DNA of 64,000 nt from Armatimonadota bacterium. Its GTDB lineage: Bacteria > Vulcanimicrobiota > JACPDS01 > JBDRKI01. The stretch is taken from positions 32,272-96,271 of the forward strand of contig JBDRKI010000037.1 of NCBI GenBank assembly GCA_043814095.1. The letters run 5' to 3'. Of the stretch, positions 8,434 through 55,094 are shown piece after piece. Numbering within the stretch: the stretch's first letter is position 1; each line of letters begins with the position of its first letter. The position numbers and the translations under genes are program-made. The notes under the pieces are model-generated. The model was given only the letters and a program-made list of their open reading frames with translations, was not told the DNA's origin and ran no database searches.

Positions 8434-8478
8434 ATTGCAAAATTATTGCCAAAATGTTAACAAATTGTTAACATTTTG
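8434..8478 (-). promoter_or_regulatory. 11-bp-period GTTAAC operator array
   Basis: Minus strand GTTAAC-aattt-GTTAAC-atttt-GGCAAT-aattt-TGCAAT; 8450-8478 is a palindrome with 14-bp arms. Confidence 0.75.
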
Positions 8479-8530
8479 AATATTCTTGTTATTTATGCTT
8501 AAAATCGTTAAAAAGTAAGAAATAGATTAA

Positions 8531-8555
8531 AGGATTTATCCGTAATTATTTGAAA
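8531..8555 (+). promoter_or_regulatory. sigma-H-like promoter
   Basis: AGGA-N17-GAAA. Confidence 0.5.
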
Positions 8556-8585
8556 TGGTAATCATTAAAATTTTAGGGGGCATTT

Positions 8586-9947
8586 ATGTCAGAAGAAAAG
8601 CTTACCTGGAAATTCTCGCGCGAGTTCTGGACGGCTAACGGGGTTGAACTCTTAGAAAGAGCCGCTTATTACGGCATGTTTATAGCTCTTACCCTTTACC
8701 TTACGAATCTTGTGGGGTTTACCGATATTGAAGCCGGCTGGATAGCCGGTCTTTTTGCGGCTATTCTGTATTTTATGCCCACTTTCAGCGGAGCATGGGC
8801 TGATTCTATGGGTTTCAGAAGGGCGCTTCTTCTGGCATTCGGGCTTCTTACAATAGGGTACGGCATGCTGGGTTTTTTCGCGACTAAGCCCTCAACAATA
8901 ATGGCGCTGGCTATAATAATGATGGGCGGATCTTTTATAAAATCAATTATTACCGGTACTGTCGCCAAATGTTCCGATCCTACAAACAGGGCTAGAGCAT
9001 TCTCTATTTTTTACCAGATGGTAAATATCGGAGCTTTTACAGGAAAGATGCTGGCCAAACCTTTAAGGGTTGAACTCGGCATCCAGTACATTAATATAGC
9101 GTCGGCTTGCTACTGCTTGCTGGCTCTCGGAATAGTGTTTTTCCTTTACCGCAATATCGATACACATGGCATGGGAAAAAACATGAAGGAAAGCTGGGCG
9201 GGTTTTGTAAAAGTACTCGGCAATTTACGTTTCATGGCTATTATAATAATTGTGGGCGGGTTCTGGGCTATACAGCACCAGCTTTACGCCACAATGCCCA
9301 AATATATTCTAAGAACGGTAGGGGCGGGGGCGTCTCCCGAATGGTACGCTAATGTAAATCCCCTTGTTGTTGTGCTATTAGTTATACCGATTACCCAGCT
9401 TACGAGAAAATTTAAACCTATGGTATCAATAGGTATAGGCTTATTTATAATCCCGTTATCCGCGCTTACAATGAGTTTAAGCCCTATTCTGCAGAAAACA
9501 TTCGGCAATTCAATGCCTCTTATAGGCAAGATATTTATTAACCCCATAACCCTTGTCTTTATAATAGGAATAGCAATTCAGGCGCTTGCGGAATGCTTTC
9601 TTTCTCCCAGGTTTCTTGAGTATGCTTCCCACCAGGCGCCTCCCGGAGAGACCGGATTATATATGGGATACGCGCACATAAACAGCTTCTTCGGGAACCT
9701 TCTTGGATTCGGTATTTCGGGCTATCTTCTTAACGCCTGGTGCCCGGACCCCAAGACTCTTTCTCCCCAGGTACAATCCGCATGGCAGAACGCACTGGCA
9801 GGGCAGGGGGCTATGCCGGCGGCTTATTCGCACGCCTATTATATATGGTATGTGTTTGCCGGGATAGGATTTGCGACTTTTGCGGTATTCCTGCTGTATT
9901 CGTTTATCACTAATATGCTTGATAAAAAAAGGGGTGTAGTTAGTTAA
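8586..9947 (+). CDS. MFS/POT-like peptide transporter
   Basis: ELLERAAYYG and FYQMVNIGA motifs; multiple TM helices. Confidence 0.85.
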   Translation: MSEEKLTWKFSREFWTANGVELLERAAYYGMFIALTLYLTNLVGFTDIEAGWIAGLFAAILYFMPTFSGAWADSMGFRRALLLAFGLLTIGYGMLGFFATKPSTIMALAIIMMGGSFIKSIITGTVAKCSDPTNRARAFSIFYQMVNIGAFTGKMLAKPLRVELGIQYINIASACYCLLALGIVFFLYRNIDTHGMGKNMKESWAGFVKVLGNLRFMAIIIIVGGFWAIQHQLYATMPKYILRTVGAGASPEWYANVNPLVVVLLVIPITQLTRKFKPMVSIGIGLFIIPLSALTMSLSPILQKTFGNSMPLIGKIFINPITLVFIIGIAIQALAECFLSPRFLEYASHQAPPGETGLYMGYAHINSFFGNLLGFGISGYLLNAWCPDPKTLSPQVQSAWQNALAGQGAMPAAYSHAYYIWYVFAGIGFATFAVFLLYSFITNMLDKKRGVVS

Positions 9948-9970
9948 AAAATAATAACAGAATCAGACAG

Positions 9971-10014
9971 AAACCATAATGCCGCCGGATAAAGTTTTGG
10001 CGGCATTATGGTTT
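9971..10014. terminator. Intrinsic terminator
   Basis: aaaccataatgccgcc...ggcggcattatggttt followed by T-tract. Confidence 0.85.
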
Positions 10015-10064
10015 TTTGTTTTTTAATAATAACTTTTCAAATTGAAATTATTCTGTAAAGGGGT

Positions 10065-10805
10065 CTATTTAACTAACTTTTCCATATGAATTAAAACTTC
10101 CATAAGTTCTTCTTTTGACGGCAGGTAATTATTTTTCTCAAGTAAAACAAAAGAGCCGGCTTCTTTCCATAGATTGAACGAATTAGAAGATAAATTCAGA
10201 AAACAGTTAAGTATAGTATTTATATTTGTTGCACCGCCGGATATTTTAAAAAGGCCGAAGCTGTTATTCTGCCTGACTTCTTCATCGGCAGATGTTGAAG
10301 ACAGTTCCTTCAGTAATTCGGGCTGTGATTTAACCATGGCAATTTTTATAAAATCTTTTTTAAAGAAGTCGTTTATAAGTTCACAGCGCCAGGTGTTTAA
10401 AAACTGTTTTGTTTTAACTTCGTCATCGCTTTGTATAATGTATTCGCGATCAAACCCGGGCAATCCTATTTCTATATCTTTATATCCGAATGCTTTTTTA
10501 AATATGTTCTGGAGAGCTGTTTCTGAGGATATTACAAGGCTGATCGGGATATCCCGGTAAAAGTATATATGGAATTTTGAAGGAGAGTGTTTGTCTCCGG
10601 GAATTAGTTCCAAGTTTACTTTTTTCCCGTTCCAGTATCCCGTTAAAGAAAATGTTCTGAATATCAGGTCGCTTTTTAATTCTCCGGGTATTATTTTCAT
10701 AAAGCTTTCAAATTTTTTCTTTTTTGACATCCTGTCAAAATAAATTGCACAGATAATTAAAATAAAGACAGCGGCAAAGATTACTGAAAAAATATGATCT
10801 TCCAT
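10065..10805 (-). CDS. Hypothetical membrane-anchored protein
   Basis: N-terminal TM; DIEIGLPGFDREYIIQSDD segment; directly abuts the upstream gene. Confidence 0.65.
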   Translation of the reverse strand: MEDHIFSVIFAAVFILIICAIYFDRMSKKKKFESFMKIIPGELKSDLIFRTFSLTGYWNGKKVNLELIPGDKHSPSKFHIYFYRDIPISLVISSETALQNIFKKAFGYKDIEIGLPGFDREYIIQSDDEVKTKQFLNTWRCELINDFFKKDFIKIAMVKSQPELLKELSSTSADEEVRQNNSFGLFKISGGATNINTILNCFLNLSSNSFNLWKEAGSFVLLEKNNYLPSKEELMEVLIHMEKLVK

Positions 10806-53368: not shown

Positions 53369-53398
53369 TAAAAACCGCCTCAATCGAGGCGGTTTTTA
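53369..53398. terminator. Bidirectional terminator
   Basis: taaaaaccgcctc-aatc-gaggcggttttta. Confidence 0.88.
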
Positions 53399-53433
53399 AT
53401 ATCTCCAATTTATTTATTATTAATTATTCCTAA

Positions 53434-54876
53434 TTAATGAGGTTTAAACATTTCCTCATCTTCTTCAGGCGGTTCGGGTGAAGGTACTACATCATGCTCT
53501 GTAGCATCGCCCGGTATGTGTATGTGTTCTTTAGGAGCTATAGCTCTGTTTAAGGTTTTTAGTATTGAGAAGAGTATAACTGCCGCAAAGAGTGATGTGC
53601 AGACCAGAAGAAGGAAGAAGTTTGCGTGAGTCATCTTATCCCAGTAGCTTCCTAAAAACCCTGAAGCATAGTTGCCTATAGCTGTTGATGCGAACCAGCC
53701 GCCCATGAGCAGGCCTCTCATTCTGGCAGGTGCAACTTTAGATACAAATGCAAGGCCCATAGGACTTAAGCAAAGTTCTCCAAGTGTAACCACCGCATAA
53801 GATGATATAAGCCAGCTTACGCCTACTTTGCCTCCAAATCCTAAAGTTTCTAATTTAAGAGCGCCAACCCACATTACACCAAAAGCCAGGGCTGTTAGGA
53901 TCATACCAATTCCGATTTTTGCAGGCGTTGTGGGTTCTTTTTTCCGCACGGCAAGCATGGTCCATACCCATATAAGAAGCGGGGTAAAGAGTACCACAAA
54001 GAACGGGTTTACTTTCTGGAATAATTCGGGATTAAGGTTGGTTATTGTGCAGTCTCTTGCCCAGAAGGTTAAAGCAAATCCGTTCTGGTGGAAGGCCATC
54101 CAGAAAAGGATTACAACGCCGAATATGGAAAATAATGCAATTAATCTATTTTTTTCTTCTTTCGGATCTACAGTTGCTTTTTCATGAGCCGCTTCTTTAT
54201 GCAAACTGTCTGCGTTCTTAAACTTATTTTTATAAATAAGCAGAATTGCTAAAGATATTAACATTCCAACCGCAGCCGCCAGGAAAGCAAATCCCCAGCC
54301 GTCACCGGTGCCCGGAACTTTTTCGAATGCAGTACGCAGGAATGACGCAGCCGATGGAGCATAAAACGCACCAATATTTATACCCATATAGAAAATATTA
54401 AAGCCTGAATCTTTTTTGGGATCATTTTTATCATAAAGATTTCCTACAAGGGTAGATATATTAGGTTTAAATAATCCATTACCGATAACTATTAAACCAA
54501 GAGCTATAAAAAATATTTTTTGATCAGGGAAATATAACAAACTATATCCTGCAGCCATAATTACGGCACCTATCGCAATGGTTTTTACAAACCCCCAGAA
54601 TTTATCCGCTATCCATCCACCGATAAGAGGGGTAAAATATACAAATGCTACGAATAAACCATAAATTTGGCCGGATGTTTCTTTTGGCATTTTAAAGAAT
54701 TCATCCATATAAAGGGCCAGAATTGCAAGCATTGTATAAAATCCGAATCTTTCCCACATTTCAGTAAAGAAGAGGGTGTATAATCCTTTAGGGTGTTTTT
54801 GACGGAAAAATGTCATCATGCTCAGGATAATTATGACCGGGAAAATGATAAAATCAAATGCGGTTATAATATTCAT
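53434..54876 (-). CDS. POT/PTR family oligopeptide transporter
   Basis: HPKGL, EMWERFGFY, FYMGINIGA and ELCLSPMG motifs. Confidence 0.92.
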   Translation of the reverse strand: MNIITAFDFIIFPVIIILSMMTFFRQKHPKGLYTLFFTEMWERFGFYTMLAILALYMDEFFKMPKETSGQIYGLFVAFVYFTPLIGGWIADKFWGFVKTIAIGAVIMAAGYSLLYFPDQKIFFIALGLIVIGNGLFKPNISTLVGNLYDKNDPKKDSGFNIFYMGINIGAFYAPSAASFLRTAFEKVPGTGDGWGFAFLAAAVGMLISLAILLIYKNKFKNADSLHKEAAHEKATVDPKEEKNRLIALFSIFGVVILFWMAFHQNGFALTFWARDCTITNLNPELFQKVNPFFVVLFTPLLIWVWTMLAVRKKEPTTPAKIGIGMILTALAFGVMWVGALKLETLGFGGKVGVSWLISSYAVVTLGELCLSPMGLAFVSKVAPARMRGLLMGGWFASTAIGNYASGFLGSYWDKMTHANFFLLLVCTSLFAAVILFSILKTLNRAIAPKEHIHIPGDATEHDVVPSPEPPEEDEEMFKPH

Positions 54877-54925
54877 AAATTGCCCCTTTCTATAATAGAT
54901 CGTAGTAGCTAATACTTAACTTTTT

Positions 54926-54950
54926 ATTCTTAAGTGGAGGTGAAACTCCT
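54926..54950 (-). promoter_or_regulatory. sigma-H-like promoter
   Basis: Minus strand AGGA-N17-GAAT. Confidence 0.55.
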
Positions 54951-55008
54951 TTTTTTATAAAAAGATATTTTATGGTCGGGCTTTAAATAAGCACAAAAAA
55001 GACATAAA

Positions 55009-55036
55009 AGGGCTTAAAATAGGTATTTTAAGCCCT
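55009..55036. promoter_or_regulatory. Perfect inverted repeat with 13-bp arms (candidate operator)
   Basis: agggcttaaaata-gg-tattttaagccct. Confidence 0.6.
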
Positions 55037-55050
55037 ATAAGGGTCAAAAA

Positions 55051-55094
55051 GTTAACATTTTGTTAACAACTTTTAAAATCAGCTGGTGTATAAT
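55051..55094 (+). promoter_or_regulatory. GTTAAC-N5-GTTAAC operator plus -10 box
   Basis: GTTAAC-atttt-GTTAAC, 21 nt, then TATAAT (55089-55094). Confidence 0.75.

Follow-up and report, generated by a model that had tools for sequence, protein, structure and literature searches.

Phased GTTAAC arrays in front of orphan genes

We analyzed a 64,000-nucleotide stretch of DNA (hereafter the window) from an Armatimonadota bacterium (GTDB lineage Vulcanimicrobiota; JACPDS01; JBDRKI01), corresponding to positions 32,272 to 96,271 of contig JBDRKI010000037.1 (C37:32272-96271) in assembly GCA_043814095.1. This genome measures 2.50 Mb in 129 contigs, has a G+C content of 39% and is rated 99% complete. 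The elements under study are short intergenic arrays in which GTTAAC-like hexamers recur every 11 bp upstream of a -10 box. A first-pass annotation of the window had reported five such arrays, and direct reading of the sequence recovered all of them at the given places. Two of these arrays (35481-35497 and 35535-35573) stand back to back and form divergent promoters. The arrays, their -10 boxes and a further short element lying upstream of some arrays (the distal box) are as follows:

8434..8472, minus strand: array of four phased units, GTTAAC-N5-GTTAAC-N5-GGCAAT-N5-TGCAAT, read from the sequence
8418..8423, minus strand: TATAAT -10 box, with 21 nt between it and the GGCAAT unit and 10 nt between it and the TGCAAT unit
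35481..35497, minus strand: array of two GTTAAC units, leftward promoter
35503..35510, minus strand: distal box CTATAAGG of the leftward 35481-35497 array
35453..35458, minus strand: TATAAT -10 box preceded by TGT, 22 nt from the proximal GTTAAC unit, read directly
35535..35573, plus strand: array of four units, GTTAAC, TTTAAC, GTTAAT and GGCAAC
35595..35600, plus strand: TATACT -10 box, 21 nt past the GGCAAC unit
36465..36492, plus strand: array of three units, GTTAAC, TTTAAC and GTTAAC
36450..36457, plus strand: distal box TATAAGGG of the 36465-36492 array
36526..36531, plus strand: TATAAT -10 box, 33 nt past the last unit, missing the 32-nt register by one base
55051..55067, plus strand: array of two GTTAAC units
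55036..55043, plus strand: distal box TATAAGGG of the 55051-55067 array
55089..55094, plus strand: TATAAT -10 box, 21 nt past the last GTTAAC unit

The first open reading frame behind each array was taken as its target. In the window, the targets and the operons that they head are:

8189..8383, minus strand: 64-aa orphan, no Pfam family
34358..35422, minus strand: operon of two orphans without Pfam family, 176 aa (34895-35422) and 172 aa (34358-34876)
35723..36379, plus strand: HD-GYP-type phosphodiesterase (Pfam HD_5, HD)
36568..37095, plus strand: 175-aa orphan with N-terminus MINAIPTVGAGS, no Pfam family
55128..58042, plus strand: operon of four orphans (194, 182, 131 and 382 aa)

N-termini encoded in the last operon include MINVTSM, MINTSM and MLNSIMP. 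Its first protein is predicted to be a helical bundle, for which the ESM Atlas returned generic look-alikes (TM about 0.6), and the protein encoded at 36568 gave sub-threshold hypothetical clusters (score 0.79); no function could be named for either.

Public sequencing data were also compared with part of the window. Two short contigs from an RNA-library run match just the arrays (window 35532-35566 and 36464-36495), with two mismatches each; they probably derive from other array-bearing loci or from relatives, and we do not take them as evidence of transcription. Contigs of four public sequencing runs (shares 0.05-0.07), compared with window positions 34300-38700, showed nothing about orphan transcription or start sites, the few exact pieces in this interval falling on gatB.

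The arrays form a genome-wide class of promoters

Counted in the window alone, the excess of phased sites was modest: eight matches to the pattern with up to two mismatches vs 3.46 expected, a number reached in 2 of 100 shuffles. The excess in spacing was confirmed over the whole genome, where exact GTTAAC-Nk-GTTAAC pairs occurred 93 times at k=5, 37 times at k=16 and 13 times at k=27, vs zero or one at every other k from 0 to 29. With at most one mismatch in total, 155 pairs were found at k=5, compared with 4-17 at k=2-4 and k=6-8. Chaining of the pairs gave 93 arrays of two to five units each, 84 of them wholly intergenic in a genome that is 91.6% coding by crude calls. What had been described as a small regulon of five sites is instead a class of about 93 promoters. 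The first-pass annotation had thought methylation control conceivable at this HpaI-type palindrome; the hexamer itself is not avoided, with 750 GTTAAC sites genome-wide (198 inside arrays) vs about 708 expected from a Markov estimate.

Each unit comprises a palindromic octamer, TGTTAACA, and three A/T bases, 11 bp in total. Since this core is palindromic, an orientation can be read only from the degenerate units GGCAAY, GCTAAT and NNTAAT, which are asymmetric and keep one orientation relative to the -10 box. When arrays were aligned on the -10 box, the GTTAAC cores were conserved and the A/T spacers were not. In the same alignment, conservation was best in the units ending 32 and 43 nt before the -10 box, while units closer to it decay to GGCAAY, GTAACA and similar sequences without change of orientation.

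The distance to the -10 box is fixed to the base. A TATAAT-like hexamer lies exactly 21, 32 or 43 nt past the last good unit in 66 of 93 arrays, vs 5-21 arrays when the offsets are shifted by 1-10 nt, and the histogram of offsets from the last exact unit peaks at 21, 32, 43 and 54. As controls for promoter elements, we used 539 further TATAAT sites located before genes. A -35-like hexamer (at most two mismatches to TTGACA) was found in 10/70 array promoters, 138/539 controls and 81/539 shuffled sequences, whereas the extended -10 motif TGn was present in 30/70 array promoters and in 47/539 controls. The median distance between the -10 box and the start codon is 53.5 nt. The first-pass annotation had placed the arrays in the position of the -35 box, and this placement held genome-wide: the -10 register is fixed, a -35 hexamer is no commoner than chance and TGn is enriched. 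Two other promoter interpretations were rejected. An alternative sigma factor does not fit as the main explanation, the -10 box being a canonical TATAAT with TGn; neither does an UP-element or pure DNA curvature, since it is the GTTAAC cores that carry the information, rather than the A/T spacers.

The distal box, with consensus TATAAGGG, lies 8 nt upstream of the distal unit regardless of the number of units. Its AAGG was found in 31/70 arrays vs 1/70 in the control window. The box is often preceded by CC(C), which would give a tiny hairpin, and it is absent from most flgB promoters of the relatives described below.

Targets are mostly orphans and include genes of a flagellar-type apparatus

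The rule of a phased array plus a -10 box selects about 4% of the genes of this genome. The 88 downstream proteins fell into 76 blastp clusters, and the promoters were therefore not simply copied along with paralogues; duplication of paralogues was rejected as the origin of promoter similarity on this ground. No Pfam family was found in 70 of 93 targets scanned (a set that includes four additional members of window operons) vs 11 of 53 non-target genes of the window. Among proteins of at least 100 residues, the figures were 56/79 targets and 10/49 other window genes. Targets with a Pfam match comprise apparatus-type proteins (FlgB, a protein with the D1 domain of FlgE/F/G and a FliK-like protein), an 800-residue Met-zincin without signal peptide encoded immediately behind flhA, a peptidase with lethal-factor/M90-like domains, five HEAT-repeat proteins, TPR, GH114, NAGPA, SLBB and YHS proteins, and the HD-GYP enzyme. 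Arrays also precede the genes of three large lipoproteins that combine a caspase domain with poly-Gly linkers (C28:1174, C36:49032 and C88:5292 of this genome, G000).

These results bear on other proposals of the first-pass annotation. It had proposed that one activator co-ordinates a dispersed set of uncharacterised proteins: the targets are indeed mostly orphans and scattered, and the identity of the activator is a prediction taken up below. It had seen no array before a clear housekeeping gene, which is correct for the window and nearly so genome-wide, where one weak two-unit array with a poor -10 box precedes an exonuclease VII gene. The suggested link to c-di-GMP turnover was not supported; what bears on it is one HD-GYP target and a sub-cut-off GGDEF-like domain in a kinase of the operon of the candidate regulator, RR1.

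The apparatus genes lie on two contigs. On contig C54, a single strand carries flgB-flgC-fliE-fliF ... fliH-fliI-fliJ, an SLT transglycosylase gene and a FliK-like gene, and continues with an array, a 273-residue hook-type gene, fliM/N ... fliQ-fliR-flhB-flhA, an array, the zincin gene and a 950-residue orphan. Contig C55 carries an array, a second FliK-like gene, an FlhB-C-like gene, flgF, flgG and a gene for a rod-binding protein. Arrays thus stand before flgB, the hook-like gene, the FliK-like operon and the gene behind flhA. The parts present are FlgB/C/F/G, FliE/H/J/M/N/Q/R, the FlgE-D1 hook-like protein and two FliK-like proteins, in addition to FlhA, FlhB, FliI and FliF, which exceed the NCBIfam flagellar equivalog cut-offs. 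The apparatus did not score as an injectisome: the flagellar models pass, whereas the SctV model scored 612.5, below its cut-off of 692.25, and SctU was also below its cut-off. Flagellin (PF00669), FliD (PF07195), MotA/ExbB (PF01618) and FlgI (PF02119) had no match in this 99% complete genome. This gene content supports a predicted regulon core made of a flagellar-type secretion apparatus, the search for filament, cap, P-ring and stator genes having given no match. Four genes for secretins are located on other contigs, and two orphan genes without Pfam family lie on the opposite strand inside the C54 cluster.

We compared this genome with a sample of 40 relatives (41 genomes in all). Flagellin was found in 14 of the 41, mostly those with a second full-length FlhA. 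The presence of flagella was rejected as a discriminating phyletic profile, FHIPEP being found in 41/41 genomes. FHIPEP matches reach about 15-18 per genome in large-genome relatives (G015, G021, G026, G030 and G034). In this genome, two proteins (G000 C4:6322-7311 and C67:7470-8351) consist of the FlhA C-terminal (cytoplasmic) domain only, without the membrane part; these domain-only copies could take part in substrate docking, as adaptors or decoys.

The flgB array is conserved across families

A search for FlgB in the 40 relatives gave 30 loci, 23 of which have a GTTAAC pair (at most two mismatches) within 260 nt upstream, vs about 0.01 per locus expected from the genome-wide background. 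The flgB loci with a pair span 12 families, including that of this genome. Thirteen flgB promoters from 11 families align without gaps: GTTAACA is followed by N4 and TTAACA, the third and fourth units read G(C/A)TAAT and NNTAAT, and TATNAT comes 10 nt later. Columns without variation are GTTAACA, TTAACA, T..TAA, AA and the TA..AT of the -10 box, and the flanks vary. Second flgB copies in two relatives (G021, L125; G030, L124) have no array and provide a within-genome control. Further arrays in G013, G019 and G034 stand 21, 32 or 33 nt before TATAAT, ahead of orphans with polar N-termini. Exact pairs numbered 93 in this genome, 2 in the sole relative of the same order and 0-16 among the relatives overall, with a reversed control pattern giving 0-2. 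Because the flgB promoters align gap-free across families, we interpret the element as an old conserved operator, its abundance being peculiar to this genome.

Upstream of the arrays at flgB, several families share another conserved element (L109, L111, L115, L101 and L108), made of TATATCACGAC and, about 12 nt further on, AAAGTAAAG. On the opposite strand, it resembles a divergent sigma-70-type promoter (TTTACT ... GTGATATA).

RR1 is the best candidate regulator

The genome encodes three OmpR-family regulators (Trans_reg_C proteins), named here RR1 to RR3. Orthologues of RR1 (C97:38444-39136) with 61-77% identity were found in 30 of the 40 relatives, in addition to one truncated copy, and cover all families having the flgB array. 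RR1 was not found in families f12 (0/7) and f17, both of which also lack the motif. Over families in which FlgB keeps 38-47% identity, RR1 keeps its 61-77%. The nearest solved structures are RegX3 and MtrA, and the nearest NCBIfam models are YycF/WalR, MtrA, PhoB and RpaB, all below equivalog cut-offs; a CtrA model was not among the 25 best NCBIfam matches. The best-matching orthologues come from assemblies that bear the titles UBP9, Vulcanimicrobiota and Calescibacterium. This phyletic pattern makes RR1 the best candidate for the regulator of the arrays, the fit being suggestive.

The operon of RR1 holds two histidine kinases, one of which is a cytoplasmic PAS kinase. The second, encoded by the third gene (L209:120-1328, corresponding to G000 C97:40219-41427), has an N-terminus weakly resembling GGDEF (E 1.4e-4, below the Pfam cut-off) and could let the candidate regulator respond to a nucleotide signal.

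The two other regulators have narrower distributions. RR2 (C36), the PhoB-like member of the three, heads a cluster in which it and its kinase precede pst genes, running into pstS-pstC-pstA-pstB-pstB-phoU, and no close orthologue was found in the 40 relatives. Close orthologues of RR3 (C20) are confined to four genomes of one genus. The first-pass annotation had considered that pst/pho genes among the targets would indicate a Pho box. Neither pstS (C36:22272 and C31:25207) nor phoU (C36:26437) is preceded by a GTTAAC pair, even with up to three mismatches, and a Pho regulon was rejected, the pst and phoU genes belonging to RR2.

Target proteins have polar N-termini

Type III secretion signals are polar, disordered N-termini without a Sec signal peptide. 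A hydrophobic N-terminus was found in 10 of 71 targets vs 612 of 2261 other proteins. In the other 61 targets, residues 2-25 contain more Asn (2.0-fold, p 3e-17), Gln (1.8-fold) and Ser (1.4-fold) than the background and less Leu, Glu, Lys and Cys, a bias that is much weaker across the rest of these proteins. An I, L, V or P at position 3 or 4 is present in 41/61 targets compared with 795/1649. By crude gene calls, N-termini of the form M-x-I-N are five-fold over-represented (12/75 targets vs 79/2417 proteins). In the window, genes 36568, 55128 and 55767 start with M-x-I-N or M-I-N, and the M-x-I-N start may be a lineage-specific export tag. The resemblance to type III signals makes these targets candidate substrates of the apparatus, beside some surface enzymes that are predicted to be Sec-exported.

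Elsewhere in the window, five tandem paralogues with IPT/TIG domains were observed at 17755-25907, the first three also having BNR/Ycf48-like propellers; this looks like the expansion of a surface-protein family. A 439-residue protein encoded at 6777-8096 contains about four pseudopilin-like repeats that terminate in CPxCG motifs, and it matches T2SSG weakly.

A proposed activator mechanism and its alternatives

We consider it probable that the arrays are operators of a single conserved OmpR/PhoB-family (winged-helix) response regulator, with RR1 as the candidate, which would activate the apparatus genes and the orphans. This reading is based on the strict 11-bp period, the fixed -10 register, the lack of a -35 box, the extended -10 motif and the conservation across families. 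In the mechanism that we propose, two to five head-to-tail units would lie on one face of the helix, their hexamers ending 10, 21, 32, 43 or 54 nt before TATAAT. The phosphorylated regulator would first bind the well-kept core units, centred at about -47 and -58 (with TATAAT at -12 to -7), and would then spread cooperatively onto the degenerate promoter-proximal units (GGCAAY, GTAACA, GCTAAT). At these proximal units, it would stand in for the -35 contact that the housekeeping sigma factor lacks here, and the outcome would be activation rather than repression. The ancestral target would be the flgB operon of the flagellar-type type III apparatus, kept across the phylum. In this lineage, the operator would now stand on about 90 promoters, most of them driving orphans that have polar N-termini and lack a signal peptide.

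Several observations weigh against this reading. The 8-bp core TGTTAACA is a perfect palindrome that would equally suit a dimeric repressor binding once per turn, and the head-to-tail arrangement is argued from the asymmetric degenerate units alone. An extended -10 box, which can work without a -35 box, is present in 43% of array promoters, and the proximal unit lies in the promoter spacer, 10 nt from the -10 box. Regarding RR1, its own promoter has no array, by which autoregulation through an array was rejected, and the gene is chromosomally unlinked to the secretion genes. Its phyletic fit is confounded by phylogeny, the relatives being non-independent, and it has exceptions: in family f9, RR1 orthologues occur with 0-3 exact pairs, and an array-type flgB was not found; in family f5, the arrays accompanying RR1 are all degenerate (GTTTAC/GTTAAT units); and in G002 (62% complete) six motif pairs were detected and no RR1 orthologue. 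As to the targets, ten of 71 have signal-peptide or lipoprotein N-termini (among them the caspase lipoproteins, GH114 and NAGPA), so that not all targets would be type III substrates and the regulon would be wider. All gene calls and starts, moreover, come from our own crude caller.

Repression or dual control is conceivable because 43% of the promoters have an extended -10 box and the proximal unit lies inside the spacer. A dimer on each palindromic TGTTAACA would then cover positions -70 to -23 and occlude polymerase at extended -10 promoters, in the manner of MetJ or omega-type tandem operators or of CtrA acting as a repressor. The perfect 8-bp palindrome, the proximal unit 10 nt from the -10 box and the 30/70 promoters with TGn all suit such operators, and CtrA both activates and represses from such sites, according to the available part of a report on this regulator (PMC11264516). 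We nevertheless regard repressor or dual-function operators as unlikely. The 40/70 promoters without TGn have no -35 box above chance either and would be very weak without an activator; a -10 register held to a single base is typical of activators that contact polymerase; and the degenerate units GGCAAY, GCTAAT and NNTAAT are asymmetric, with constant orientation to the -10 box.

The operators could also be real and be read by a regulator other than RR1, either RR2 or RR3 or a member of another DNA-binding family, such as an orphan factor encoded in the secretion cluster. The two opposite-strand orphans without Pfam family inside the C54 cluster would provide candidates, and the missing linkage of RR1 to the secretion genes, the lack of an array at its promoter and the confounding of the phyletic correlation by descent all leave room for them. 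Against this, RR2 is encoded beside pstSCAB-phoU and lacks close orthologues among the 40 relatives, RR3 is restricted to a single genus, and RR1 retains far more identity across families (61-77%) than FlgB (38-47%). Head-to-tail TTAAC-type half-sites at 11 bp are, moreover, a signature of the OmpR family in the available parts of two reports (PMC2275107, PMC11264516). We judge a regulator other than RR1 to be quite improbable.

It is very doubtful that the arrays are a promoter module proliferating by duplication, recombination or slippage along with lineage-specific genes, its abundance reflecting copying (phased A/T curvature being a related idea), since, although the 93 exact pairs here vs 2 in the same-order relative and 0-16 in others, the lineage-specific distal box TATAAGGG (AAGG in 31/70 vs 1/70), the 24/93 arrays lying within 1.5 kb of a contig end vs 14 expected and the change of unit number in 11-bp steps would suit it, nothing is conserved past the box and the -10 box to mark the ends of an element, the downstream genes fall in 76 unrelated clusters, the GTTAAC cores are conserved and the A/T spacers are not, and the motif is an ancient flgB operator, so that even the spread of a module would still create a regulon.

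If the activator reading is extended to the function of the regulon, a tentative possibility is that a second flagellum-derived apparatus, lacking filament, cap and stator, serves as a dedicated secretion machine for some 60-80 unrelated orphans, including HEAT-repeat, zincin and lethal-factor-like peptidase proteins without signal peptides, all wired by one phased operator that would be read by a phylum-wide WalR/MtrA-like regulator. If true, effector secretion would have arisen from the flagellum by a third route, separate from that of the injectisome, with a substrate catalogue readable from promoters. The cis-element is of a familiar type, and what it reveals is unfamiliar. A simple rule (at least two TGTTAACA units at an 11-bp period, the last one 21, 32 or 43 nt upstream of TATAAT) ties proteins that mostly belong to no known family to the apparatus. 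Should the targets be substrates, the rule would provide a ready effector catalogue for an uncultured lineage, and the apparatus would be a new case of a flagellum converted to secretion. RR1 and the flgB promoter, conserved over many families, offer a simple regulator-operator pair for testing.

Comparison with known systems

PhoP of Bacillus subtilis binds TTAACA repeats. In Streptomyces coelicolor, the available part of one report describes PhoP operators made of 11-nt direct-repeat units, of which at least two are needed and up to six occur, with cooperative spread from conserved core units (PMC2275107). In Mycobacterium tuberculosis, tandem PhoP dimers displace the contact between the -35 box and sigma region 4, as far as the available part of the source describes (PMC11825685). 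To the extent covered by these sources, the PHO boxes of PhoP/PhoB share with the arrays an 11-bp unit, multi-unit operators and a combination of conserved core and poor units. They differ in that arrays are absent at pstS and phoU, the pst genes lying beside RR2, that the array targets are secretion-apparatus genes and orphans, and that the core TGTTAACA is palindromic.

CtrA, another OmpR-family regulator, recognizes TTAA-N7-TTAA at the -35 position of about 100 genes, including the early flagellar genes fliQ and fliL, in the available part of its description (PMC11264516). Taken with this description, the arrays are similar, as GTTAAC-N5-GTTAAC contains TTAA-N7-TTAAC and precedes flgB, hook-like and fliK-like genes. 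CtrA sites are, however, mostly single, whereas two to five strictly phased units are found here, and the lineage studied here is not proteobacterial.

For PmrA of Legionella, the consensus that Zusman et al. are said to have described in 2007 is a tandem TTAATATT-like repeat. PmrA is a winged-helix response regulator and a global activator of about 40 scattered effector genes, according to the accessible part of the source (PMC6989116). On that account, the PmrA regulon of Legionella/Coxiella Dot/Icm effectors resembles the proposed regulon in having one winged-helix regulator for dozens of scattered genes. It differs in serving a type IVB system of pathogens with proven translocation, whereas here the system is of flagellar type and secretion of the targets is predicted from their N-termini.

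No paper describing such a system turned up in a literature search for flagella or type III secretion in Xenobia or Eremiobacterota; no search for the motif itself was made. Export and basal-body genes without a filament are described for the basal bodies of Buchnera aphidicola and for an FT3SS-like system of Lysobacter enzymogenes, for which a shift to protein export has been proposed in the parts of the reports available (PMC8109811, PMC7688988). These systems are gammaproteobacterial remnants, whereas the apparatus described here is conserved across many families, has its own operator and is accompanied by a large set of genes that would be co-regulated with it. Unlike the Buchnera and Lysobacter remnants, the array-linked apparatus also coexists, in some relatives, with a second, flagellin-linked set.

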